A stretch of 64,000 nucleotides of DNA, from assembly GCA_949286015.1 (NCBI GenBank), contig CASEBB010000002.1, positions 9,981 to 73,980 of the forward strand, given 5' to 3'. The DNA comes from an uncultured Succinivibrionaceae bacterium (GTDB lineage: Bacteria; Pseudomonadota; Gammaproteobacteria; Enterobacterales; Succinivibrionaceae). A program made the translations under genes and the position numbers. This document shows, one piece after another, positions 8,543 through 63,435 of the stretch. The notes beneath the pieces are model-generated. The model had not been told where the DNA came from. It was given only the letters and a program-made list of their open reading frames with translations, and made no database searches. Every line of letters starts with the position of its first letter. Position 1 is the stretch's first letter.

Positions 8543-10921
8543 TTACGAGCGCTGTGGCCCATGCGCTTTGCCTCGACCCCGTGTGGAGACTTTAGGCGGT
8601 TTGATCTCGATGTCGACCTCTCTAAAGCCAAATTGCTCCGAGGGCACGGTCTCGTAAGCTTGCGCTGGGCTCTGGTTTTTTGCATGCGCCTTACGCACAG
8701 CGCGGTGATGTGGACTTACTTTGTCCTTAGCGCCGCTACCCTGCTGCTTGCCTGGCATACGGGTATCACCCGCCATACGGGCATCCCCCGCCATGTGAGC
8801 ATCGCGGCTTAAGCGCATGCTGCTTAAAAGCTCTTGTTCCTGCTCAGAGGTGACAGCAGTTTCACCTACAGCAGCACTGCCCAGCTGATGGCTCTGGGCA
8901 TAATGCGCAAAAGCCTGCAAGGTAGCTTGATTTGCCGAGAGGGCCTCTTGCTTAGAGACCTGCTCTGCCGTTGGGGGCAAATTGCGCATGGACTGCGGCA
9001 CAAAAGTAAGATCACTCACGCTATTGGCCGTGGTCTGCGGCGTGTGCGGCGCTAGCGGTGCACTCATGTACGGCGCAGAAGGAGCAGACGGCGCTGCTGC
9101 TACCGCTGCAGTGGCGGTGGCAGCTGCTTCTGCAGCTTCTGCTACAGCTGCCGCTTGGGCCCGCTGCTCTTGGGTCGCGGCCAGAAAATGCTCCAGCGTC
9201 AGTTCCTCAGTTAAGGCCTCAGGGCGTGCACTGGCACTGGAACTAACACTAGCAGTGACATGCACGGTGTCAGTAGCGCTTATGGCATTAGCATCACTTA
9301 GAACATCAGTGGCGCTGTCTCCCTCAGCTGTGCGAGCGTCAGTAACGCTAAAGGCGTCAGGAGAAGCGCTGGCTGGAACCAGAGTAGTAGCCTCTGAAAC
9401 CACCTCTGGAGCGCCATCCTGAGAGGACGCTAAGTACGCATTCAGGCTCTGCGGCGCCACCTCCTGACTTGGGCGTGGCGCTGGCTCTAAGCTCAGCTTA
9501 GCGGCAGGGTCAGACGCGCTGCGGCCTAATTTTACCGCATCCGCCTCGGTGCCGGTGTTGTACGTACTCTCGGCCCTACTCTCTGCCGTCGCAGCTTTAT
9601 CTGGTACAGCACTGGGTGTGTCTTCTGCTACAGACTGTGGCGGCTCTGGCTCTTGAGCGTGCTGCGACGTCGGCTCAGACATGCTCTGTGACACAGGCAG
9701 GCTTTGCGGCTCTGGCATGCTCTGCGGCACAGGCATGCTCTGTGGCTCTTGCTCTGGCTCTAAGCGCGGCGCTGGAGACGCGGCAGGCGTCTCAGATACT
9801 GTGGTTGCGCCGGAACTGTTGACGCTGCTCAGCGTACCTAAGGCAGCGGTGGCCAGCAATTGCTTATTCTGCGCTTGCACCACAGCGTTTACCGCCGCAT
9901 TTACTGGTGCTGGGGTCGCAGTCGATTGTGGCTGATAGCGCGGAATCGAGATCGTAAAGACCGTGGTAAAAGGCTCAGGCCACGCAGTCAGCGTCAAGAG
10001 GCCCTGATGCACCTTTGTCACGGCCGAAACCACGGCTAAGCCTAAGCCAGTACCGGAGCTTTTAGAGGTAAAGAACGGCTCAAAGATCTTAGTTTTCAGC
10101 TCTTCAGGGATGGTAGGGCCGTCATTAGCCACGCTAAAGACCACCCGATCCCCCTCCCTATCGACTTTAAAGGCAATTTGCTTAGCCCCTGCTTCTACAG
10201 CGTTAGCAATGAGGTTACATAAGGCGCTATTTAAAGCGACAGGATTACCTAAGATGGGGAGCTTAACCGCTGGATCATAGACGGTGAGCAGGTGTGCCTG
10301 ACTGCGCTCAAGTAAAGCTGTGACGTTATTGACCACAGGGGCAATGAGCTCGGTGGCATCCATTTCACTCACGGTTTGCTCATTGGAGCGAGCAAACATG
10401 AGGATATCGCTGATTTGTGCTTCTAAGGCCTCTAAACGGCTCATCAGCTTTTGCTGAAAGCGCTGCCGCATCTCAGGGGCGAGATCATCATTGGCAAGGT
10501 TCGAGGCGTAGAGCAGTGCCGCTGACAGCGGGGTACGAATCTGGTGAGCTAAGCTTGCGGCCATGCGTCCTAAAGAAGAGAGACGCTCCATATGGGACAA
10601 CTTCTCTTGCAGCAGACGCGTCTCGGTAAGATCGGTCATCTGCACCAATTGGCCGTGAGCTAAAGGAATGGTAGCCACTTGTAAGCGGCGGCCGTCGCGG
10701 GTAGAAATCTGGTGGCCATCGTCGTTACGCGGGCGAAACACTTGGGAGATCACTTCGACCCAGTGCTCTCCTGTAAGGTGGTCACTGCCCATAAGCTTAA
10801 GGGCGCTGTCATTGGCGTGGGTGATGATGCCGTGATCATCAATAATCAAGATGGCCGCAGGGATTTTGGTAAACACCTCAGCCATTAAGGCTAAATCGTT
10901 ATTTTGCTGCGGGGTGCTCAT
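8543..10921 (-). CDS. PAS sensor histidine kinase (NtrB/FlrB/FleS-like) with a ~460-aa low-complexity C-terminal tail
   Basis: Start set at the internal ATG (MSTPQQNN). H-box SLAHQIRTPLS, N-box CNLIANAVEAG, G-boxes ANDGPTIP and SGTGLGLAVV. The catalytic core ends near ...FTISIPRY; the remaining A/S/P/E/Q-rich sequence has no recognisable domain. Confidence 0.85.
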   Translation of the reverse strand: MSTPQQNNDLALMAEVFTKIPAAILIIDDHGIITHANDSALKLMGSDHLTGEHWVEVISQVFRPRNDDGHQISTRDGRRLQVATIPLAHGQLVQMTDLTETRLLQEKLSHMERLSSLGRMAASLAHQIRTPLSAALLYASNLANDDLAPEMRQRFQQKLMSRLEALEAQISDILMFARSNEQTVSEMDATELIAPVVNNVTALLERSQAHLLTVYDPAVKLPILGNPVALNSALCNLIANAVEAGAKQIAFKVDREGDRVVFSVANDGPTIPEELKTKIFEPFFTSKSSGTGLGLAVVSAVTKVHQGLLTLTAWPEPFTTVFTISIPRYQPQSTATPAPVNAAVNAVVQAQNKQLLATAALGTLSSVNSSGATTVSETPAASPAPRLEPEQEPQSMPVPQSMPEPQSLPVSQSMSEPTSQHAQEPEPPQSVAEDTPSAVPDKAATAESRAESTYNTGTEADAVKLGRSASDPAAKLSLEPAPRPSQEVAPQSLNAYLASSQDGAPEVVSEATTLVPASASPDAFSVTDARTAEGDSATDVLSDANAISATDTVHVTASVSSSASARPEALTEELTLEHFLAATQEQRAQAAAVAEAAEAAATATAAVAAAPSAPSAPYMSAPLAPHTPQTTANSVSDLTFVPQSMRNLPPTAEQVSKQEALSANQATLQAFAHYAQSHQLGSAAVGETAVTSEQEQELLSSMRLSRDAHMAGDARMAGDTRMPGKQQGSGAKDKVSPHHRAVRKAHAKNQSPAQAYETVPSEQFGFREVDIEIKPPKVSTRGRGKAHGPQRS

Positions 10922-27789: not shown

Positions 27790-27903
27790 GGCCAGCTCGC
27801 TCCCTGCCCAGCACCGCTCTGCACTGCAATGCACCGCACTGCATGCACTGCACAGCTACCGCTCCCGCGACTTAGCAGGGCGCACACGATAATCATTCTC
27901 AAG

Positions 27904-34128: not shown

Positions 34129-36066
34129 CTACTGATCCTTCTTCACCGTAAAGACACGGCTGCTGCGGTGCACCACCTTTGGCCCGTTGCTCTCGTGGCC
34201 AGCACCGGCGCTGTTACCACCCTGCTGATAGCGGTTCTGGTAACCGCCTTGGCCCGAGCTTGGCTGGTAGCCACCCTGTGGGCGGTAGCTGCTGCCACCC
34301 TGTGGACGGTACGAGCTGCCGCCTTGTGGGCGATAGCCGCCACCACCTTGCTGGTAACCACCACCTTGTTGGTAGCCACCACCCTGTGGGCGGTAGCTGT
34401 TACCACCCTGTGGACGGTACGAGCTGCCGCCTTGTGGACGGTAGCCGCCACCACCTTGCTGGTAACCACCACCTTGTTGGTAGCCACCCTGTGGACGATA
34501 GCCACCGCCTTGTGGACGGTAACCACCAGCACCAGCCTGTGGACGATAACCACCACCCTGTGGACGGTAACCGCCTTGGCCTTGAGGGCGATAGCCGCCA
34601 CCCTGCTTGAAGCCACCAGGGCGACGTGGTGCCTGCTTGCGCTGCTGTTGCTTGCGCTGCTTGGCGGCCTTCTTCTTGGCCTTGGCTACGTCCTCAGCGA
34701 TCTGCTGCTTAATGCGAATGATCTCTTGACGAGCGTTCTCGCGGTGCTCCGGCTCAATCTCGCTGACCACGTTACCCTCGAGGTCAACACGAGGCACGCC
34801 ATCAGCCAGCTTCTGCAGGTAAGGAATGGAGTGGCAGTAGTTGTGGAGCATCTTGTAGCGATGCTTGTTGAAGTAGTTGTACTGCGCATCCATGCCCTCT
34901 AAGCGCTGCAGGATTTCCTGCGCAATACCAATCTTTAACGGCACGCGCTTGTCACGCTCGGTAAAGATGGCCTTAGGGAAGGCTAAAGCAAGGAAGCTTA
35001 AGAACTTGTCGCGCTCAGCCTTATCACGGGCACGACGCTCTTCAGCGGCCTTACGCTCCGCAGCGACCTTAGCGCGGCGTGCAGCACGCTCCGCTGGGGT
35101 CAGAATAGGACGGTTGTCACGCCACGAGCCCTTCTTCTTTGGCTCAGCACCGTCCCCCTCTGCACTAGGTGCCTCTCCCTCAGCAGGGGCAGCAGCACCA
35201 TCAGCGCTAGCTGGCGCTGTCTCAGCAGGAGCAGCCTCTACAGCTGCTGGGGCCACTGGAGCTTCTGCAGCTACAGGGGCAGCAGGAGCGGCTACTGGCT
35301 CAGGAGCAGCAATTGGCTCTGGCGCCTCGGCCTCGGCTGGGGCAGCGGCTGGAGCCTCAGCCTTATTGCCGATGTCATCGTCAGTGGTGGCTGGTACAGC
35401 CTCAGCTTCGACGCGATTGCCGATGTCGTCATCTTCCTCAGCATCAGCATCAGCTTCAGCAGCAGCGCCACCAGCAGCATCTTGCGCTTTGGCAGCGGCC
35501 GCTAAGGCTTTGATCTTATCTGACAGGGACGACTCAGCAGTGGCACTCTCAGCAGGGGCATCAGTTACAGCAGCTTCAGCTGCGGCGGCAGCGGCAGCAG
35601 CGTTGTCAGCCTCGATCTGGGCCTTGGTGCGACGGGTACGCTTTGGCTTGACCTCTTCACCAGCTTCAGCAGCGGCGGCAGCAGCTGCGGCAGCGGCAGC
35701 ATTGTCAGCTTCGATTTGCGCCTTGGTGCGACGGGTGCGCTTTGGCTTTACCTCTTCACCGGCGGCTGCGGCCTCAGCAGCAGCTGCAGCGGCAGCGGCA
35801 TTGTCTGCCTCAATTTGCGCTTTAGTACGGCGGGTACGCTTTGGCTTGACCTCTTCACCAGCCTCAGCGGCGGCTGCAGCAGCGGCGGCAGCGGCGGCAT
35901 TGTCAGCTTCGATTTGCGCCTTGGTGCGACGGGTACGCTTTGGCTTGGTCTCAGGAGCATCAGCGTTTACGATCACAGTACGTGGCAGGTCGTCACCTGC
36001 ACCTGTGAGCGTGCTTTTTTTTCGCGTAGCGGTTTGCTCCAAGCCGCTCGAGTTTTCGCTATCCAT
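34129..36066 (-). CDS. ProQ/FinO-domain RNA-binding protein with repetitive N- and C-terminal low-complexity regions
   Basis: Central segment FLSFLALAFPKAIFTERDKRVPLKIGIAQEILQRL...YLQKLADGVPRVDLEGNVVSEIEPEHRENARQEI aligns with E. coli ProQ (FLAERFP..F......PLKIGI......R.....YL.....G..RVDL.GN...E....H.E.A). ATG at 36066 is preceded by GGAG. Confidence 0.85.
   Translation of the reverse strand: MDSENSSGLEQTATRKKSTLTGAGDDLPRTVIVNADAPETKPKRTRRTKAQIEADNAAAAAAAAAAAEAGEEVKPKRTRRTKAQIEADNAAAAAAAAEAAAAGEEVKPKRTRRTKAQIEADNAAAAAAAAAAAEAGEEVKPKRTRRTKAQIEADNAAAAAAAAEAAVTDAPAESATAESSLSDKIKALAAAAKAQDAAGGAAAEADADAEEDDDIGNRVEAEAVPATTDDDIGNKAEAPAAAPAEAEAPEPIAAPEPVAAPAAPVAAEAPVAPAAVEAAPAETAPASADGAAAPAEGEAPSAEGDGAEPKKKGSWRDNRPILTPAERAARRAKVAAERKAAEERRARDKAERDKFLSFLALAFPKAIFTERDKRVPLKIGIAQEILQRLEGMDAQYNYFNKHRYKMLHNYCHSIPYLQKLADGVPRVDLEGNVVSEIEPEHRENARQEIIRIKQQIAEDVAKAKKKAAKQRKQQQRKQAPRRPGGFKQGGGYRPQGQGGYRPQGGGYRPQAGAGGYRPQGGGYRPQGGYQQGGGYQQGGGGYRPQGGSSYRPQGGNSYRPQGGGYQQGGGYQQGGGGYRPQGGSSYRPQGGSSYRPQGGYQPSSGQGGYQNRYQQGGNSAGAGHESNGPKVVHRSSRVFTVKKDQ
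34210..34620 (-). repeat. Coding repeats for the GGYRPQ / GGGYQQ tail
   Basis: Protein aa ~484-620: GGYRPQGQGGYRPQGGGYRPQAGAGGYRPQ..., including a larger internal duplication GGGYQQGGGYQQGGGGYRPQGGSSYRPQGG(N/S)SYRPQ. Confidence 0.9.
35572..35946 (-). repeat. About 3.8 tandem 99-bp coding repeats (33-aa unit KPKRTRRTKAQIEADN-polyA-GEEV)
   Basis: The word GCTTTGGCTT recurs at 35641, 35740, 35839 and 35938 (99-bp period). The protein shows three full units and one partial unit. Confidence 0.9.
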
Positions 36067-36957
36067 CAACTTAACTCCGATAACACCAACTGCTCTGAAT
36101 GCTAATACGCACGGTAACCAACACAGCGCGCCTTACCACCCTACAGCACCGGCTATCCTAAAAGAAATGATCACACTAGACTCGACTACTGTCTCCTAAA
36201 AGACAGTCACCTTTAGTCTAGGGCCGCATGGCAGATCGATCATTAGTAAACATAGAGCTGACATTGCCCTATGACAAAACTCTCAACAACGAAAAACTAC
36301 TTCCTGAGAAGCACAAGCCGACCACACCTTTTTGCTATGAGTACTCCGTTGAGGAAGGGTCAGCATCGCGTGGCATGCAAGAACACAGCACGCGCTTTTA
36401 GATGCGATAAAAAGCACAGAGTACTACTAATGTACAATGAGAATACCAAAAATTTCGACCAGAGAGCACATCTCACGTAAAAAATTTCTATGGCCCGTTG
36501 CAGTTACAGGCATAGCACAAGAAAGGGAGGCGCTTCAGGGCTTAAATAAGGGCAAAATGCCTGCTACAGGTGCAAGCTGCAACCACTGCTCTGACCACGC
36601 AAGGACGCTCACTCTTATGGTTTCACGTGGCATCAAGGTAGGGAAAGCTGTAGGGCAAAGAAGGGCGGGACAAATGGCAGGTGAGGAGAGGAAGCAAGGA
36701 AGCTGGAATAACGCCTGACGGCACTGTTATCTCAAGCAGATTAAGATCTGACCTCACTTCAAGGTAAAGTGCTCTCCTTGAGGTAATCAGATGCGGCGCT
36801 ATCTCTAAGGCCGGAGGCGCTGAGCTCACCTCAAGGTAACAGGGACGCCGCTAACCAGAGACAACAGCGCCTAACGGCGCTGCTATCCCCAGAGGAGCAA
36901 GGAGATTAAAGGGCAGCCACGTACTATGGCGTGGCCATACCCTGTAGAGACTACTCC

Positions 36958-42257: not shown

Positions 42258-42476
42258 AGAAAAATCTCAAAAAGGAAAACGCTCTCCACCATCAGTAGAG
42301 ACAGCCAAGTCTAAGCTACGAGGCTTAGCCTCGCCTTAGCTTAAGAGGGGCGCCGTTTATCTCCGCTTTCACCGGCGCTGCCCTCTATGGAGTACCACAG
42401 CTTGCTCCAAGCCTTGCGGGGAAGTTACAGGGAACTCACTGGGAGCTCACTGGGTACTCGCAGGGAACAGTAAGCT

Positions 42477-45561: not shown

Positions 45562-45580
45562 CCTGCGCTACCGTGCTGCG

Positions 45581-45625
45581 TGCAGTGCAGTGCAGTGCAG
45601 TACTGTACTGAACTGCACTACTGTA
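45581..45625. repeat. Pentanucleotide-periodic tract (TGCAG)4(TACTG)2...
   Basis: Read directly, just 3' of the rodZ stop codon. Confidence 0.8.
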
Positions 45626-47244: not shown

Positions 47245-47275
47245 GTACGGAGTACGGGGTACGGGGTACGGGGTA
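47245..47275. repeat. Heptanucleotide tandem repeat (GTACGGR)4 + GTA
   Basis: Read directly: gtacgga gtacggg gtacggg gtacggg gta, 82-112 nt upstream of the rodZ start. Confidence 0.9.
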
Positions 47276-49035: not shown

Positions 49036-49123
49036 CTTAAGAGCGGCTTCAGCGCGGCCTAAGCGCAGCCGCAGCGCGGCTTAAGAGCAGCTTCAGAACT
49101 GCTTAAGCGCGGCTTAAATGCAG
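49036..49123. repeat. Degenerate ~10-11-nt tandem repeats (GCGGCTTAAG / GCAGCTTCAG type)
   Basis: Read directly. Low complexity. Not CRISPR-like. Confidence 0.6.
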
Positions 49124-56147: not shown

Positions 56148-58670
56148 ATGACAAACACCTCTCAACTCCACAAAGCCCCATCTTTTGGTGTCATCGTCTG
56201 CTTACAGGACTTGGGCTTTGCCTCTGATCACAGACTGATTACGGAAACGGAGAGCACCTTACTCTCTTTAGGTATCCGTTGTGACTCTGCCAGTGATGAT
56301 ACAGCGCCCGCCTCAGTAAGCTTTTCTTTGTGCGCCCGTGAGCAGCATCAGAGCGCCTTAGAGAGCCTTAAAGGCATACACAACGACGCTGCTACCTTTG
56401 CCGCTATGTCCTTGCAAGAGGCTCTCAAGCAAGCACTGCAAGCTTGCACGGCAGACTACGTCTTAATCTGCAGCAATGGTGATCAATATCCCCACTCTTT
56501 TCTCTCCACGGTACAGCAAAAGCTCTTAGCAGCGCCCGCCCCTCTTGATCTCATCAAAGGTGTAGTGGTTGATGATGCGGGCACGCCACTGTGGCCAACC
56601 ACCGATGCCACTGCCAGCGAGCAAGCCCCTGTAACGCTACTTACCAGCATCAGTACCTGTGTCTTTCGTCGTGACTATCTCTTAGCGCATGGCCTTGAGG
56701 ATGTGCTCACAGAGTGGTTCCTGCTCTACGCCGCGCGTGATCCACAGATAAAGATGGTGTTTTGCCCAGAGCTCAAGGTTGAAGTTAACAAGCACACCTT
56801 TGAAGCCACTGGCGCGCAGCGCTTCCATCTGTTAGGAGCTACCTTGCTGCGCCTTAACTCTGAGCTACAAAAGACCTCCGTAAGCGCAGAGCAGCGTCTC
56901 TATCTCTTAGCGACGGTCTTTGCTGACGTGTATCTTCAGCTTGAGCACCTCCCTTATGTAAAAGATCGCCTCATGTATGGCGAGCATATAGGTAAGGCCT
57001 ATAGTGCTCTAAGTGCGCAACTTAATGGCAGTGACACTCAAGACCACACCACAGCTACGCAGAACACTGCTACACAGTGTGCAGCAGCGCAGCTCTTTTT
57101 GACGCAACTGCGCACCATCAACCCGACAGCAGCTCAAGCCGCAGCAAGTGGCGATCCTTATGATCTCTTCCCTGCGTTAAGCCAGCAAGAGCAGGTGCAA
57201 TTGCAGATTAGAGCCAATGAGGATGAGTGCAAAATCGCGCACCTGCAAACGACTTTAGAAAAGCTCGGTGAGCTTTTGGCGCGACAGACACGCGGCGAAA
57301 CCGCCACCGATCAAAAGTTCTACGTCATTGCGGCCATGAGCAACATGCCTGTATTTCAGGACATGTGGCGCGATTACTTCCTCAACAACCCGTTCTTACG
57401 CGAACGTCCTAACATCAAGCTGGTGCAGTGGCTCACAGAGGTCAATGCCGATGGCAATATTGACCAAGGTCGGGCTCAAAACGAGTTCATTGCGTCCTGT
57501 GACTTAAGTGAGGATGCATGGCTGTTTTTCGTGCATGCTGACTACGAGATTCTCGACGATTTGGGTCAGGTCTTTGCCCCACTTGATCGTAATTGTCTCT
57601 ATAGCCCGCATGGAGTGGTTAAAGCCAAATACCGTGACAAGTACTACAGCATCTACCTCAACAGTCACGTCCAAGAAAACCGTCACGATAACGGTTTCAA
57701 TCCTGGCCACACCAATCTCGACCTTGTTGGGGACAACGATAGGGTTGAGTGCTTAGACTCTATCATCGCTATCCACACCTCGCTGTTAAGGCGTTACCCT
57801 AAGCTGCGCTTTGATGACAAGCTCACCATCCACCTTGCCATTGAAGACATCAGCATTAATGGCCTGCTCAATTACGGTATTGAGTCACGCCAACTTTTTA
57901 TCAACGCCAATCACCACGGTGAGCACATCTTTACCACGCTCTTACAGCCGGAGTTTGTCCGCTTCAGAGACTACCTCACAGAGAAGTATCCTGACCATTA
58001 CTTCCCTGTGGTGATGGGTAATTTCGTAGGCCATCTGGATACCTTAAAGATTACCGAGACCAATGGCGCTACTTTAGAAGTAGAAGCCGCAGATTATGGC
58101 CAGCACATCTACAACCACTACCAACGCCCAGACTTTATTTGGTCGCAGCAATTTATTGATTACCGCCGTAATCACGTAACAGCCACCTTAGCCGCTAAGC
58201 TCAAAGAGGGCGTAGACGACATCTCTGGTGCGCTGGTTGATCGTATGGAAGATCTGTACGACCTGCTGCCAATGCAAAGTCACGTCTTGATCCAAAAGGA
58301 CGCTACCTTACCTGAGGAGGAGCAGCAGCAACGCTGTAAGTTGTGGCTACAGAAGTCTACCAACAACACGCAACCAGAGCTCATTTACCAATACGGACTC
58401 TGCGAGAGCGATCCTCGAGTGCTGACATACATTAACGGTAAGGATCTTATCGTCTGTAACACCAACAACAATGGTGATACCACGCTGTTGTTCCCTGAGA
58501 TGTTCCCACAGTCGCAAGTCTATGCCATTGAGGCAGACACAGCTAATTTCAAGCATGTGCCAGAGCGCACGCTGGTGCATACCATGAGGGCAGTCAGTCA
58601 GTCAGTCAGTCAGTCGGGGGCGTCCCCGATGTATCTAAGCAGACTGCGTTCACCACCCACGCTGCTGTAG
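56148..58670 (+). CDS. Multi-domain protein, paralogue 1: GT-A-like N-terminal region fused to the N-half of an FkbM-type methyltransferase; truncated after an AGTC tract
   Basis: 840 aa. Long identical peptide runs shared with 59442-61397 (LTSISTCVFRRDYLLAHGLEDVLTEWFLLYA, WRDYFLNNPFLRERPNIKLVQ). From LDTLKITETNG onward it is paralogous to the ORFs at 62345 and 63670. The frame ends about 18 codons after the tract. Confidence 0.8.
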   Translation: MTNTSQLHKAPSFGVIVCLQDLGFASDHRLITETESTLLSLGIRCDSASDDTAPASVSFSLCAREQHQSALESLKGIHNDAATFAAMSLQEALKQALQACTADYVLICSNGDQYPHSFLSTVQQKLLAAPAPLDLIKGVVVDDAGTPLWPTTDATASEQAPVTLLTSISTCVFRRDYLLAHGLEDVLTEWFLLYAARDPQIKMVFCPELKVEVNKHTFEATGAQRFHLLGATLLRLNSELQKTSVSAEQRLYLLATVFADVYLQLEHLPYVKDRLMYGEHIGKAYSALSAQLNGSDTQDHTTATQNTATQCAAAQLFLTQLRTINPTAAQAAASGDPYDLFPALSQQEQVQLQIRANEDECKIAHLQTTLEKLGELLARQTRGETATDQKFYVIAAMSNMPVFQDMWRDYFLNNPFLRERPNIKLVQWLTEVNADGNIDQGRAQNEFIASCDLSEDAWLFFVHADYEILDDLGQVFAPLDRNCLYSPHGVVKAKYRDKYYSIYLNSHVQENRHDNGFNPGHTNLDLVGDNDRVECLDSIIAIHTSLLRRYPKLRFDDKLTIHLAIEDISINGLLNYGIESRQLFINANHHGEHIFTTLLQPEFVRFRDYLTEKYPDHYFPVVMGNFVGHLDTLKITETNGATLEVEAADYGQHIYNHYQRPDFIWSQQFIDYRRNHVTATLAAKLKEGVDDISGALVDRMEDLYDLLPMQSHVLIQKDATLPEEEQQQRCKLWLQKSTNNTQPELIYQYGLCESDPRVLTYINGKDLIVCNTNNNGDTTLLFPEMFPQSQVYAIEADTANFKHVPERTLVHTMRAVSQSVSQSGASPMYLSRLRSPPTLL
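58591..58615 (+). repeat. Tetranucleotide tract C(AGTC)6 inside the coding sequence, followed by G5
   Basis: Read directly: cagtcagtcagtcagtcagtcagtc ggggg. Confidence 0.97.
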
Positions 58671-59441: not shown

Positions 59442-61397
59442 ATGACCAACTACTCTCAGACCCACAGTATCCCATCTATTGGTGTAATCGTTTGCCTGCT
59501 GGACTTAGACTTTGCCTCAGGCGACAGACTGGTTACAGAAACCGCAAGCACCTTACGTTCGCTCGATATCAACAGTAACGCCGTCAGCAACGACATTGCT
59601 AACCACACCACCACCACCACCCCCACCACCACCACCACCACCACGCCAGAGTACATCGCTGTAAACTTGTATCTGTGCGCCCGCGAGCAGCATCAGAGCT
59701 CCTTAGAAAGACTGCAAGAGCAGCACACTGTCACTGCTACTTTCGCCGCTAAGACCTTGCAAGAAGCCCTTAACCACGCTCTGCAAGCTTGCAGTGCCGA
59801 TTATGTCTTAATCTGCTGCAATGGCGATCTCTATTCTCCGCACTACCTTGCCACGGTACAGCAAAAGCTTGTAGCAGCGCCCGCCCCTTACGATCTTATA
59901 AAAGGTGTCGTGGTCGATAATGCAGGCACGCCACTGTGGCCAACCACCGATGCCACTGCCTGCGAGCAACCCCCTGTAACGATACTTACCAGCATCAGTA
60001 CCTGTGTTTTCCGTCGTGACTACCTCTTAGCGCATGGCCTTGAGGATGTGCTCACGGAGTGGTTCCTGCTCTACGCCGTGCGTGATCCTCAGATCAAGAT
60101 GGTGTTTTGCCCAGAGCTCAAGGTTGAGGTCAATCAGCACACCTTTGACGCCACCGGCATGCAGCGCTTCCATCTGTTAAGTGCCACCTTGCAACGGCTC
60201 AACTCCGAGTTACAAGAGACCTCCTTAAGCGAGCCGCAACGACTCCACCTCTTAGCTACGGTCTTCAATGACGCCTATCTTCAGCTGCAGCGCGTTTCTT
60301 ATGTGAAATACCGCTTCATGTTTGGCGAGCATCTGTGCAAGGCTTATTGTGCAATCGCTGCGCAGCTGCGCAGCCAGCAGGTTAACGCTGCCACGAGCTC
60401 TACTGTTGCACCTCAGTGTGCGTCCATACAAAGTGAGGCGTGGCAGCTCTTTTTGACCCAGCTGCATGCTCTCAATCCCACCTTGGCTACTGCCGTAGAG
60501 CGCAACGATCCTTATGCCCTCTTTCCTGCGTTAAACCAGCACGAGCAGGTACAGTTACAAATCAAGGCCAATGAGTCTGCCTACAAAATTGAGCACCTGC
60601 AAACGACCTTAGGCAAGTTAGGCGAGCTGCTTAATCGGCAAACGCGAGGTGAGACGGCCACCGACCCAAAAGTCTACGTCATTGTGGCTATGAGCAATAT
60701 GCCTGAATTTCAGGGCATGTGGCGTGACTACTTCCTCAATAACCCCTTCTTACGGGAACGCCCAAACATCAAGCTCGTGCAGTTACTCACAGAGGTCAAT
60801 GCAGAGGGTACTATCGACCAAGGACGTGTGTGCAACGAATTTCTGCAGTCACTTGATCTGAGTGAGGATGCGTGGCTATTTTTCGTGCAAGCTGATTACG
60901 AGATCCTCGATGATTTAGGTAAGATCTTTGCTCTGCTTGATCGTAATTGCTTCTACGGCCCCCACGGTCATATCAGGGCCAAGTACCGTAATCAGGATTA
61001 CAGCCTACAAATCAACATGCACGTGCTTGAAAATCGCCACGATGGTAGCTTTAACCCTGGTCACAACAATATTGACTTGCTTTGGGACAACAACAGAGTT
61101 GAGGCCTTAGAAGCGGTCTTGGCTGTCCATAGCTCGCTGCTACGCCGTTATCCGCAGCTGCGCTTTGATGATAAACTCACTATCCATTTGCCTATCCAAG
61201 ACCTCAGCATTAACGGCCAGCTCAATTACGGCATTGAATCGCGCGCACTTGCGATCAATGCCAATCACCACTGTAACCATTACTTCACCTCACCACCGGC
61301 TCTTATCAAGAGCTTAGCTTACCTTACAGACAAGTACCCTGATCTCTACATCCCTGTATTATTAGGGCATTTCGTAGGTAAGAAGAGCACCAAGTAA
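59442..61397 (+). CDS. GT-A-like protein, paralogue 2 of the N-terminal region of 56148-58670 (stand-alone)
   Basis: 651 aa. Colinear with aa 1-~625 of paralogue 1. It ends ...LLGHFVGKKSTK* where paralogue 1 reads on (...VMGNFVGHLDTLK...). Confidence 0.85.
   Translation: MTNYSQTHSIPSIGVIVCLLDLDFASGDRLVTETASTLRSLDINSNAVSNDIANHTTTTTPTTTTTTTPEYIAVNLYLCAREQHQSSLERLQEQHTVTATFAAKTLQEALNHALQACSADYVLICCNGDLYSPHYLATVQQKLVAAPAPYDLIKGVVVDNAGTPLWPTTDATACEQPPVTILTSISTCVFRRDYLLAHGLEDVLTEWFLLYAVRDPQIKMVFCPELKVEVNQHTFDATGMQRFHLLSATLQRLNSELQETSLSEPQRLHLLATVFNDAYLQLQRVSYVKYRFMFGEHLCKAYCAIAAQLRSQQVNAATSSTVAPQCASIQSEAWQLFLTQLHALNPTLATAVERNDPYALFPALNQHEQVQLQIKANESAYKIEHLQTTLGKLGELLNRQTRGETATDPKVYVIVAMSNMPEFQGMWRDYFLNNPFLRERPNIKLVQLLTEVNAEGTIDQGRVCNEFLQSLDLSEDAWLFFVQADYEILDDLGKIFALLDRNCFYGPHGHIRAKYRNQDYSLQINMHVLENRHDGSFNPGHNNIDLLWDNNRVEALEAVLAVHSSLLRRYPQLRFDDKLTIHLPIQDLSINGQLNYGIESRALAINANHHCNHYFTSPPALIKSLAYLTDKYPDLYIPVLLGHFVGKKSTK
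59607..59645 (+). repeat. (ACC)n trinucleotide tract encoding T5-P-T7
   Basis: Read directly. Absent from paralogue 1. Confidence 0.9.
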
Positions 61398-61452
61398 CAG
61401 CAGCGCTTAGCAGCACGCGGTTCTTAAGCTCGCGAGCTCGCGCTTAAGACGC
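61273..61452 (+). repeat. Left copy of a ~176-bp direct duplication (3' end of 59442-61397 plus downstream palindrome)
   Basis: GTAACCATTACTTCACCTCACCACCGGCTCTTATCAAGAGCTTA...CTTAAGACGC recurs at 62019-62193 with a few mismatches and a ~5-nt indel. Confidence 0.9.
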
Positions 61453-62019
61453 CCGAGTTTAGTACCACATGTCGCCTAAAACAGCTTATATATCTGCTTA
61501 AGCACCACTCTCCAACAACATGGTTGTAGGAAAAAGTAGGAAAATCATTGGCATAGCCCGCGCCCTTCTTTGGTGCAAAGGCTCATAAGAACCGCATAAA
61601 CACCTTAAAAGCCACTAAGAGGTAGACTACGACCGCAGTACTGGTTAACGACAGCAACCCCGTTGCTAGTACCACCCCAGTAGGGCGGCCTTCGACAGCA
61701 TACCAAGGGGCGAAGCGTGGCTTTCCTATGCGGTTTGATGGATGCCAAAAGCAGCATCGTCCCTGCGATCAAGCAGGTGGTGCCTAGGTGATGGCGTGTG
61801 GCGTGAACAACCTCGGAGTAGTGTTGGTGCCCTATCCACCAAACGCAGTGTAGAGCCCAAAATGGTGGCTGACACTAACGTACCTATTGTGGTACCCTGT
61901 CCCCAATGATACGTGACTGACGTGTTGAGTGGCAAATTTTCCTACCACCCTGTACTAACAAAGCGGCTGAAAACAGCTTACGTATGCTCATATCCTCGAA
62001 GAAAGGTTCAAAACTCGGG
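61452..62019. mobile_element. ORF-less ~566-bp insertion bounded by perfect 9-bp inverted repeats
   Basis: CCCGAGTTT (61452-61460) and AAACTCGGG (62011-62019). It has subterminal AAAACAGCTTA words at both ends, contains an X-family repeat, and has only a 69-aa ORF. Confidence 0.55.
61811..61880. repeat. Second repeat family ('X'), partial copy 3
   Basis: CCTCGGAGTAGTGTTGGTGCCCTATCCACCAAACGCAGTGTAGAGCCCAAAATGGTGGCTGAC is related to the 5' module of copy 2 (GAGGTTGGTGTTGGTGTCCTATCTACCAAAAGC). Confidence 0.55.
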
Positions 62020-62193
62020 TAACCATTACTTCACCTCACCACCGGCTCTTATCAAGAGCTTACCTTACAGCCAAGTACCCTGATCTCTACATCCCTGTAT
62101 TATTAGGGCATTTCGTAGGTAAGAAGAGCACCAAGTAACAGCAGCGCTTAGCAGCACGCAGATCTTAAGCTTGCGAGCTCGCGCTTAAGACGC
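62019..62193 (+). pseudogene. Right copy of the duplication: decayed duplicate of the last ~40 codons of 59442-61397 plus the downstream palindrome
   Basis: Aligns with 61273-61452. The indel breaks the frame relative to the parent gene, and there is no upstream coding continuation. Confidence 0.8.
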
Positions 62194-62344: not shown

Positions 62345-63013
62345 ATGGACACTTTAAAGCTAACTAAAACTAATGGCGACACCACTGAGGTGACAGCCGC
62401 AGAGTATGGTCATTACATCTACGACCACTATGAGCAGCACGACTTTATCTGGTCGCAGGACTTCATGCGCTATCGCCGTAATCACGTGACAGCCTCCTTA
62501 GCAGCAAAGCTTAAGGCTGGTATGGACGAGCTCTCCTGTGCCTTGGTAGACCACATGGAGGACATGTATGATCTGCTGCCAATGTTAGGTCACGTTCTGA
62601 TCCAAAAGGATGCGGTCTTAACCGCTGAGGATCAGAAGCGCTGTCAGTTATGGCAGCAAAAGGCTGCCAACAACGAGCTGCCAGACTTTTATAAGCAGCT
62701 ACCAATGTTTTGTCAGCCAGAGTACGTCAACCAATACGGCCTCTACGACAGTGATCCTCAAGTGCTGGCCTACATCAACGGTAAGGACATCATCGACGGT
62801 GGCGCCTACATGGGTGACACCACGCTGTTGTTCCACGAGATGTTTCCACAGTCGCGTCTCTACGCCGTTGAGCCCGCATCAACCAACATCAAGTACATGC
62901 AAGAGCGCACGCTCGCGCCACTCCTAGGTCAGTCAGTCAGTCAGTCAGTCAGTCAATCGGGGGCGTCCCCGATGTATCTAAGCAGTGTGCGTTCACCATC
63001 CACGCCGCTCTAG
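62345..63013 (+). CDS. FkbM-type methyltransferase, N-terminal half (paralogue 2), truncated after an AGTC tract
   Basis: 222 aa. SAM-binding motif IIDGGAYMGDTTLLFHEMFPQSRLYAVEP. The frame ends about 19 codons after the tract. Confidence 0.85.
   Translation: MDTLKLTKTNGDTTEVTAAEYGHYIYDHYEQHDFIWSQDFMRYRRNHVTASLAAKLKAGMDELSCALVDHMEDMYDLLPMLGHVLIQKDAVLTAEDQKRCQLWQQKAANNELPDFYKQLPMFCQPEYVNQYGLYDSDPQVLAYINGKDIIDGGAYMGDTTLLFHEMFPQSRLYAVEPASTNIKYMQERTLAPLLGQSVSQSVSQSGASPMYLSSVRSPSTPL
62928..62955 (+). repeat. Tetranucleotide tract (GTCA)7 = GTC(AGTC)6A, followed by ATC and G5
   Basis: Read directly: gtcagtcagtcagtcagtcagtcagtca atc ggggg. Confidence 0.97.
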
Positions 63014-63030
63014 GTGAGCACCACGATCGC

Positions 63031-63435
63031 ATGACCATTACCAAACCATCTGGTCATGCCTCCTACTCGCTCGTGCTCAACGCTGATCATTCCCCGAATT
63101 ATCTCAAGTACCGCAACGAGCAGTATCGTCCCGATATCGAGGAAGTGGACATCATTGCCATCGATGATTTAGTCCAAGAGCGCCACCTGAATGTCGGCCT
63201 CATTAAGTTCGATATCGAGGGCTTTGAACCCCAAGCCATGCGCGGTGCCTTGCACACGATTAAGACGCAGCGGCCTGTCATCATCAGCGCCATCTACCAC
63301 ACGCCAGAGGAGTACTACGAGCTCAAGCCTTACCTTGAGAGCTTAGATCTGGGCTATGAGTTCAAACTCCGTTACTCTGGCAGTAGACAGCCCTACTATG
63401 AGATCGTGCTGATCGCTACTCCCAAGATAAGCTAA
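63031..63435 (+). CDS. FkbM-type methyltransferase, C-terminal half (paralogue 2), out of frame with 62345-63013
   Basis: LIKFDIEGFEPQAMRGALHTIKTQRPVIISAIYH. The frame is open back to 62959 (hand translated: GGVPDVSKQCAFTIHAALGEHHDRM). Confidence 0.85.
   Translation: MTITKPSGHASYSLVLNADHSPNYLKYRNEQYRPDIEEVDIIAIDDLVQERHLNVGLIKFDIEGFEPQAMRGALHTIKTQRPVIISAIYHTPEEYYELKPYLESLDLGYEFKLRYSGSRQPYYEIVLIATPKIS

Follow-up and report, generated by a model that had tools for sequence, protein, structure and literature searches.

AGTC repeats of variable length put tandem FkbM-type methyltransferase genes in and out of frame in an uncultured Succinivibrionaceae bacterium: a candidate phase-variation locus

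The 64,000 nucleotides (nt) analysed here (hereafter the window; positions 9,981 to 73,980 of contig CASEBB010000002.1, assembly GCA_949286015.1) belong to an uncultured Succinivibrionaceae bacterium and contain a locus of three tandem cassettes with FkbM-type methyltransferase modules, two of which carry a tract of the tetranucleotide AGTC within the methyltransferase domain. In cassette 1, a glycosyltransferase-like region of ~620 amino acids (aa) is fused to the FkbM module; in cassette 2 the glycosyltransferase-like and FkbM parts are separate genes, and cassette 3 is an FkbM gene alone, lying mostly past the end of the window. Residues ~400-620 of cassette 1 are homologous to PF13712 (Glyco_tranf_2_5) proteins, which co-occur with GT2 and methyltransferase domains, and residues 90-144 give a weak match to PF00535 (GT2). 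Together, the glycosyltransferase-like and FkbM modules form a small islet for glycan modification, of which cassettes 1 and 2 are part; the coordinates are collected in Table 1.

Between 58580 and 58630 the window reads ...ATGAGGGC(AGTC)6GGGGGCGTCCCCGATG..., and Tandem Repeats Finder returns 58591-58615 as a repeat of period 4 with 6.2 copies and 100% matches, which confirms the C(AGTC)6G5 string placed at 58591-58620 by the original prediction, made from this DNA without database searches. Across the tract the open reading frame (ORF) of cassette 1 translates as ...RAVSQSVSQSGASPMYLSRLRSPPTLL*, with VSQSVSQS as the tract peptide, and it ends, as had been foreseen, 18 codons further on at the TAG of 58668-58670. 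The FkbM half missing from this product is open in the -1 frame: this frame, read from 58502, translates as ...GGVPDVSKQTAFTTHAAVGEHHHRISTTQLSGHASCLQE... and as GGVPDVSKQTAFTTHAAVGEHHH..., in agreement with the original prediction, is stop-free past the tract up to 59092 and matches positions 48-167, i.e. the C-terminal two thirds, of PF05050 (Methyltransf_21/FkbM). A net length change of +1 modulo 3 joins the two halves, as the earlier frame arithmetic had it, and one AGTC unit added in silico results in a 982-aa product. The repeat has no stop codon in any forward frame, and all three frames give the same hydrophilic peptide, SQSV, so that a change in its length decides the reading frame only; the same-peptide property was pointed out by Power et al. 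for the tetranucleotide repeats of Haemophilus influenzae (PMC2651432). The G5 run and the hairpin around it are normal coding sequence for a GGVPDVSK loop; the stem is predicted in the DNA fold, with a weak z of -1.9 for the 81-nt region.

A second tract, absent from the original prediction, lies at the homologous position of the paralogous FkbM gene of cassette 2, and the two halves of this gene (ORFs 62345-63013 and 63031-63435) need the same +1 modulo 3 correction. The hairpin TCGGGG-GCGT-CCCCGA with its G5 run adjoins this tract as well, at 62958-62973. Both tracts are perfect tandem repeats inside an ORF with a unit that is not a multiple of three. Their chance origin is excluded, since 100 dinucleotide-preserving shuffles gave an expectation of 0.00 for (AGTC)5 with at most one mismatch, versus six overlapping matches at two loci.

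Table 1. Features of the repeat-bearing locus, in window coordinates
Feature	Position	Strand	Remark
Cassette-1 ORF, 840 aa: glycosyltransferase-like N-terminal region and FkbM N-terminal half	56148..58670	+	
(AGTC)6 tetranucleotide tract in the cassette-1 FkbM module	58592..58615	+	OFF length in the window
G5 run (58616-58620) inside the GC hairpin TCGGGG-GCGT-CCCCGA, directly 3' of the tract	58614..58629	+	
Cassette-1 FkbM C-terminal half, -1 frame, without stop codon	58616..59092	+	PF05050, E = 1.6e-10
Cassette-2 glycosyltransferase-like gene, 651 aa, paralogue of cassette-1 residues 1-620	59442..61397	+	
Cassette-2 FkbM N-terminal half, 222 aa (P0105), with intact DGGAYMGDTT, truncated past the tract	62345..63013	+	
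(GTCA)7, alternatively GTC(AGTC)6 and an imperfect AATC unit, in the cassette-2 FkbM gene	62928..62955	+	OFF length in the window
Cassette-2 FkbM C-terminal half, -1 frame; ORF 63031-63435 called as 134 aa	62956..63435	+	PF05050, E = 1.2e-9

Natural variation at the tracts was followed in 13 same-species contigs (12 from one ENA series, ERZ162680xx-2xx, and one from ERZ17292903), which were found via exact-protein look-ups and cluster member lists, the latter giving the allele diversity. The spacer between the conserved anchors GAGCGCACGCT and GGYGAGCAYCA served as the measure of length; it is 55 nt in every tract-free gene. The relatives all come from ENA assemblies, and exact-pattern scans of JGI metagenome contigs for the hairpin-flank sequence gave no match. 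The window is DNA of an Anaerobiospirillum; the closest named genome is the metagenome-assembled genome (MAG) of Candidatus Anaerobiospirillum pullicola (Succinivibrionaceae), with ~88-94% nucleotide identity across the locus.

Both ON alleles, with the downstream methyltransferase half in frame, and OFF alleles, with the protein cut shortly after the tract, exist for both genes among these near-identical natural genomes (Table 2). Cassette 1 occurs, in contigs of separate ENA assemblies, in six different tract-region alleles with 4, 5 (plus one imperfect) or 6 units, and cassette 2 in about ten, with 4-7 units and in some cases microhomology deletions; it is in frame in four of the 11 resolved contigs. 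Whole-unit differences are seen in both genes, six versus four units on identical flanks in cassette 1 (window versus L069) and n = 4, 5 and 6 in cassette 2. The loss of two units, which the original prediction had expected to yield a protein of roughly 980 aa, thus has a natural counterpart in the (AGTC)4 allele of L069, the product of which (P0010) has 977 aa, against 828-840 aa in the OFF state; the corresponding cassette-2 lengths are 359-372 and 210-222 aa. OFF alleles keep the downstream frame free of stops, with the exception of the deletion allele of L081, and the cassette-2 protein is almost invariant across contigs outside the tract. None of the relatives compared carries a fixed split without a repeat. 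The 506-540-aa homologues P0060-P0081 do not belong to this variation, as their length varies in an N-terminal low-complexity region unrelated to the tract.

Table 2. Alleles at the two tracts in the window and in same-species contigs
Cassette	Source	Tract region	Spacer (nt)	State
1	Window, L001	(AGTC)6	96	OFF
1	L069	(AGTC)4, flanks as in the window	88	ON, 977 aa (P0010)
1	L070	AGGC(AGTC)5, altered G run	95	OFF
1	L071	13-nt flank deletion and (AGTC)4	75	OFF
1	L072	additional AC and (AGTC)6	98	OFF
1	L073	15-nt shorter flank and GTC(AGTC)6	81	OFF
2	L080	GTC(AGTC)4 G5	87	OFF
2	P0109	GTC(AGTC)5 G5, back-read from the protein sequence	91	ON, 360 aa
2	L070, L073	GTC(AGTC)6 G5	95	OFF
2	L079	(AGTC)5 and AATC	95	OFF
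2	Window	(AGTC)6 and AATC	99	OFF
2	L082	flank deletion and (AGTC)7 and AATC		OFF
2	L083	8-nt deletion in the G run/hairpin	91	ON, 360 aa
2	L072	interrupted array	127	ON, 372 aa
2	L001	23-nt deletion with additional units	88	ON, 359 aa
2	L081	large microhomology deletion removing HAALGEHH		OFF

The background against which these alleles differ is nearly clonal. Window and L001 show no substitution outside repeats in 17.8 kb, and their cassette-2 tracts differ by 11 nt, which is exactly the difference between the whole contigs (74,720 and 74,709 nt); the one remaining difference lies in an (ACC)n tract (see below). L069 and L073 are separated by four single-nucleotide polymorphisms (SNPs) in 16.9 kb, yet their cassette-1 alleles differ, and window and L079, with no SNP in 1.9 kb, differ by exactly one GTCA unit. 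Such near-clonal differences are the signature of a locus apparently mutating orders of magnitude faster than its surroundings. We consider it probable that a hypermutable repeat in the FkbM loop of two tandem paralogues produces ON and OFF variants. Alternatively, the alleles could be stable and strain-specific, effectively fixed within each strain and without high-frequency switching; this would suit the nature of the data, consensus contigs with one per sample, as well as the shortness of the tracts and the several alleles with irreversible deletions. We nevertheless regard such fixation as unlikely, given that a tract can differ even between contigs that are 0-4 SNPs per 17 kb apart, that about ten alleles have accumulated in a cassette-2 gene otherwise almost invariant, and that the same unit number recurs on unlike SNP backgrounds (n = 6 of cassette 2 in L070 and L073, 86 SNPs apart).

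Repeats common to two paralogues could also confuse short-read assemblers, and the tracts are the very places where the contigs L069, L077, L078, L080, L081, L082 and L083 end or have N gaps; the identity between cassettes 1 and 2 is ~97-100% from the tract to 40 nt beyond it (58596-58655), in comparison to ~72% across the module. However, a repeat of 16-28 nt is far below the read and the usual k-mer size, which leaves the unit number unambiguous, two independent contigs agree on the (AGTC)6 of cassette 1, and every allele has unique junctions that require supporting reads. Illumina error is low at tetranucleotide repeats, and an artefact of assembly or sequencing is therefore a very improbable source of the allele series as a whole. 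It does account for one single case, a 991-aa cassette-1 gene in L081 that was considered as a second ON allele and results from a 33-N scaffold gap in the tract.

The full-length protein might, in principle, be made from the OFF sequence itself through programmed recoding, in which the hairpin would stimulate either a -1 ribosomal frameshift or slippage of transcription on the G5 run: the shift required is -1 in both copies of the window, GGG is able to pair again one base further back on G5, and there is a hairpin. The details do not fit, though, as the zero frame TCG GGG GCG has no X XXY YYZ slippery heptamer, the hairpin includes the G run instead of following 5-9 nt downstream, and the natural alleles fill all three frame classes, in-frame ones included; moreover, L001 and L083 have lost G run and hairpin by deletion and are in frame all the same. 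G5 is also too short for known transcriptional slippage. A programmed -1 frameshift site was accordingly rejected, and we would give recoding in general next to no credence. The hairpin itself is kept in the ON alleles of L069 (cassette 1) and L072 (cassette 2). The in-frame cassette 2 of L001, which lacks GGGGCGTCCCCGATGTATCTAAG, had further suggested a frame-breaking insertion of 23 nt or a translational-bypass element; this candidate was dropped, since the ON alleles of L069 (cassette 1) and of L072 and P0109 (cassette 2) retain the segment as coding GGVPDVSK, and L001 therefore is a deletion allele.

With the halves joined, the products are recognisable members of the family. Fused cassette 1 (P0010) scores 47.1 bits against PF05050 (cut-off 22.7) and 52.4 bits against TIGR01444 (cut-off 37.7), and the ON alleles of cassette 2 likewise exceed these cut-offs, with 46.2 bits for PF05050 (P0023) and 69.1 bits for TIGR01444 (the L001 allele). 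An AlphaFold2 model of the cassette-2 ON allele P0023, built from 51 homologues and with a mean pLDDT of 89.7, has the class I Rossmann-like methyltransferase fold and finds its best PDB match in 2py6, annotated 'Methyltransferase FkbM' (E = 9.9e-11), an entry also matched by a sequence search with P0010 (E = 2.2e-6). In this model, the repeat peptide together with GGVPDVSK forms a coil (residues 195-212, pLDDT ~54) between a helix (179-194) and a strand (213-217). The repeat is thus predicted to encode a disordered surface loop of the methyltransferase fold, which would explain the tolerance of ~8 to 24 extra residues in the in-frame alleles.

Several observations weigh against a working switch and deserve attention. 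Many alleles are irreversible microhomology deletions (13-35 nt) and not changes in unit number, and a 2-nt insertion as well as alterations of the G run and the hairpin (the latter hit in L001, L070 and L083) come in addition. The part of the original prediction that proposed a phase-variation switch thus holds in that length changes do fuse and split the FkbM domain; as to how they arise, it has to be widened beyond unit slippage to include these deletions, the 2-nt insertion and the G-run changes. ON alleles make up 5 of the 17 resolved, near the one third expected without selection on frame. The islet does not lie within a recognisable O-antigen, capsule or flagellin-glycan cluster. Tracts of 4-7 units are short and fall in the range where slippage rates usually are low. 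Short tracts such as (GACGA)4, however, can switch fast too (PMC2651432). Finally, motif I of cassette 1 reads VCNTNNNGDTT in place of the DGGAYMGDTT of cassettes 2 and 3, so that the S-adenosylmethionine-binding pattern D-x-G-A-x-x-G-D is absent from the former and present in the latter two; in the 51-homologue alignment this costs cassette 1 the invariant G153 and D151, conserved in at least 90%, and the FkbM profiles match it from position 8-11 only. Within the species, the cassette-1 methyltransferase module has 3 synonymous versus 10 non-synonymous polymorphisms, in contrast to 18 versus 16 in the glycosyltransferase part, a contrast of small numbers that is not significant.

These last points, along with the OFF state of five of the six resolved cassette-1 alleles, three of them with further flank indels, and the neutral overall ON fraction, make up the case for a mutational hotspot in a decaying gene, the cassette-1 module being, or becoming, a pseudogene in which indels have no adaptive role. 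Opposed to this, the ratio of non-synonymous to synonymous divergence (dN/dS) between the paralogues is ~0.2 before the tract and, in comparison with cassettes 2 and 3, ~0.2 after it as well, from which it follows that the post-tract frame was translated and constrained over most of its evolutionary history; the downstream frame is stop-free in every cassette-1 allele, an intact 977-aa allele occurs naturally, and in cassette 2 this tract is combined with an intact motif I and with four ON alleles. As an account of the whole locus, decay strikes us as possible but doubtful; it is a serious option for cassette 1, where it can hold even with cassette 2 a working switch. Judged by its alleles, the cassette-1 tract is a real, apparently hypermutable ON/OFF element, although, considering the lost motif-I residues and the 3 versus 10 polymorphisms, it may toggle an impaired or decaying domain, perhaps of little consequence now. 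The original prediction, which had placed the switch in cassette 1, is borne out as far as the existence of ON and OFF alleles goes, while cassette 2, with its intact motif and four of 11 alleles ON, is more likely the functional switch. Cassette 3, tract-free, would be the constitutive copy.

As to the origin of the tract, the tract-free spacer is found in cassette 3 and in both readable genes of Ca. A. pullicola, which identifies the tract as a lineage-specific insertion into the loop. The near-identity of cassettes 1 and 2 over the tract and the following ~40 nt, embedded in flanks of ~72% identity with dS about 1, together with a tract-free spacer that is identical in cassettes 2 and 3 of Ca. 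A. pullicola, argues for short-patch gene conversion among the paralogues; the comparisons indicate that such conversion may spread or erase the tract, and it would therefore lead many assemblies to break or leave N gaps at the tracts. The hairpin may contribute to the instability, which is speculation on our part. Going further, the tract, the G5 run with its hairpin and ~40 nt of loop-coding sequence might constitute a portable switch patch, copied by short-tract gene conversion between methyltransferase paralogues that are thereby made or unmade phase-variable, with the hairpin actively raising slippage or deletion rates so that a short tract of 4-7 units in the middle of a domain could act as a fast switch; we put this forward as an improbable, if attractive, extension of the preferred reading.

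For the hypermutable repeat itself we envisage a simple course of events. Slipped-strand mispairing in replication would add or remove 4-nt units, and the resulting length would set whether the downstream methyltransferase half is in frame or the protein is cut ~18 codons on; switching of this kind would be fast and reversible within a clone. Going by the FkbM and glycosyltransferase-like domains, the ON/OFF states would alter the methylation of a surface glycan, and the population could thereby become heterogeneous against phage or host pressure. If functional, the locus would mean stochastic variation of surface-glycan methylation in Anaerobiospirillum, with protection from recognition by phage or host as its probable role. 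It offers a clean metagenome case of two putatively switchable methyltransferase paralogues next to a putatively constitutive one, with ON and OFF alleles segregating in populations that are close to clonal. It should also be noted that tracts of this type split genes in MAG annotations and break assemblies, here about half of the contigs.

Good descriptions of phase variation through repeats exist for a few mucosal pathogens (among them Haemophilus, Neisseria, Campylobacter, Helicobacter and Moraxella). To our knowledge, there is hardly any account of it from anaerobic commensals of the gut or from Succinivibrionaceae, and a literature search found no paper linking Anaerobiospirillum with phase variation. 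What we report is a known mechanism and a new example of bacterial phase variation, in the graded sense set out above. The closest parallels are the lipopolysaccharide (LPS) loci of H. influenzae, where tetranucleotide repeats, AGTC included, confer phase variation on surface-glycan genes at about 1e-4 per generation, and where strain R2846 carries (AGTC)14 in a GT2 gene (PMC2651432). Here as there (lic1A with CAAT, lgtC with GACA, lic2A, the (AGTC)14 GT2 gene), an intragenic, stop-free 4-nt repeat encodes a hydrophilic, looped-out peptide, gain or loss of units shifts the frame of a surface-glycan enzyme, and the number of units is strain-variable. Unlike in those loci, there are 4-7 units instead of typically 10-30, the tract lies in the middle of the catalytic domain instead of close to the 5' end, the host is a gut anaerobe of the Succinivibrionaceae with ~52% GC, and deletions around the neighbouring G5 run and hairpin make up a large share of the variation. 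A tract common to a pair of paralogues, and slippage mixed with microhomology deletions, set the present locus apart.

The original prediction knew of no such switch in FkbM-type glycan methyltransferases, a claim of novelty that proved too strong: the FkbM-family gene NTHI0694 of H. influenzae 86-028NP, which contains a (G)12 repeat, has already been reported as a candidate phase-variable LPS O-methyltransferase (PMC2651432). It is of the same enzyme family, repeat-switched O-methylation of a surface glycan is proposed in both cases, and both are known from prediction; it differs from the genes described here in being a single gene with a mononucleotide tract at the 5' end. Several S-adenosylmethionine-dependent methyltransferases with poly-G tracts are part of Campylobacter phasomes (PMC6321876), and the methyltransferases and transferases in the capsule, lipooligosaccharide and flagellin-glycan loci of this likewise gut-associated, spiral and flagellated bacterium resemble ours in the repeat-driven ON/OFF of glycan-modifying enzymes and in having several switchable paralogues in one locus. 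Those systems, however, use homopolymeric G/C tracts, involve other protein families and are experimentally validated, whereas our case is tetranucleotide and comes from metagenomes alone. With the mod genes of type III restriction-modification systems (phasevarions), for which AGTC/AGCC repeats are described (De Bolle et al. 2000, as cited in PMC2651432), the locus shares the AGTC unit and the frameshift logic in a methyltransferase gene; mod genes encode DNA methyltransferases with global epigenetic effects, while the FkbM-type enzyme probably is a sugar O-methyltransferase, and, unlike for mod genes, no restriction-modification context was found at this locus.

The surroundings of the islet are typical of a gammaproteobacterium. 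Upstream lie genes for RodZ, RlmN, an MCP, an SDR and glycogen phosphorylase, and downstream, as read from related contigs, a GyrB/ParE-like gene, FlhB and a sugar epimerase; the window was also scanned for Rfam families and tRNAs, with no match. Small introns of eukaryotic type (GT...AG around the tract, and GTAAG at 61382) had been considered and were rejected because of this gene order (RodZ, RlmN, MCP, glycogen phosphorylase, GyrB/ParE-like, FlhB) and because the closest genome is Anaerobiospirillum; a GT-containing repeat always supplies a donor site that fits the frame.

The layout of the cassettes is itself variable. In L071 and L077 (ERZ16268240 and ERZ16268232), a single FkbM gene of 349 aa with a tract-free spacer follows the cassette-2 glycosyltransferase-like gene and replaces both the cassette-2 FkbM gene and cassette 3, which suggests, as read from the two contigs, recombination or deletion between paralogous FkbM genes and hence a copy number of FkbM that would vary in the population. 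The 3' end of the cassette-2 glycosyltransferase-like gene (61273-61452, ~180 nt) is repeated at 62019-62193 with 94-95% identity, the ~570 nt between the two copies have no Rfam match, and A. pullicola L002 has a single copy and no insert; the arrangement of 61273-62193 looks like an insertion with a long duplication, or like a decayed duplication. Within the same glycosyltransferase-like gene, an (ACC)n tract at 59602-59644 encodes poly-threonine; its units range from 4 to 13 in the contigs of the species, and a CCC interruption sits at different places in the window and the otherwise identical L001. The changes in this tract stay in frame and thus bring about variation in length and not ON/OFF switching.

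Further repeats are scattered over the window, and the genome may be rich in simple repeats. An imperfect (TACC)7 at 128-155 lies in apparently non-coding DNA, ~700 nt upstream of a gene for an OmpR-type response regulator (838-1503), and intergenic short arrays occur at 27811-27857, 45580-45601, 47245-47275, 42419-42468 and 49036-49117, with the units (GCACT)~9, (GTGCA)4.4, (GTACGGG)4.4 and 11-nt units x4.5 and x7.5; L001 has an identical copy of the (GTACGGG) array, which lies between rodZ and rlmN. Unrelated to the AGTC tracts, a minus-strand ORF of 646 aa (34129-36069) contains in-frame tandem repeats at 34271-34569 and 35576-35947, with periods of 108 and 99/198 nt, which encode glycine/glutamine-rich and alanine-rich low-complexity segments.

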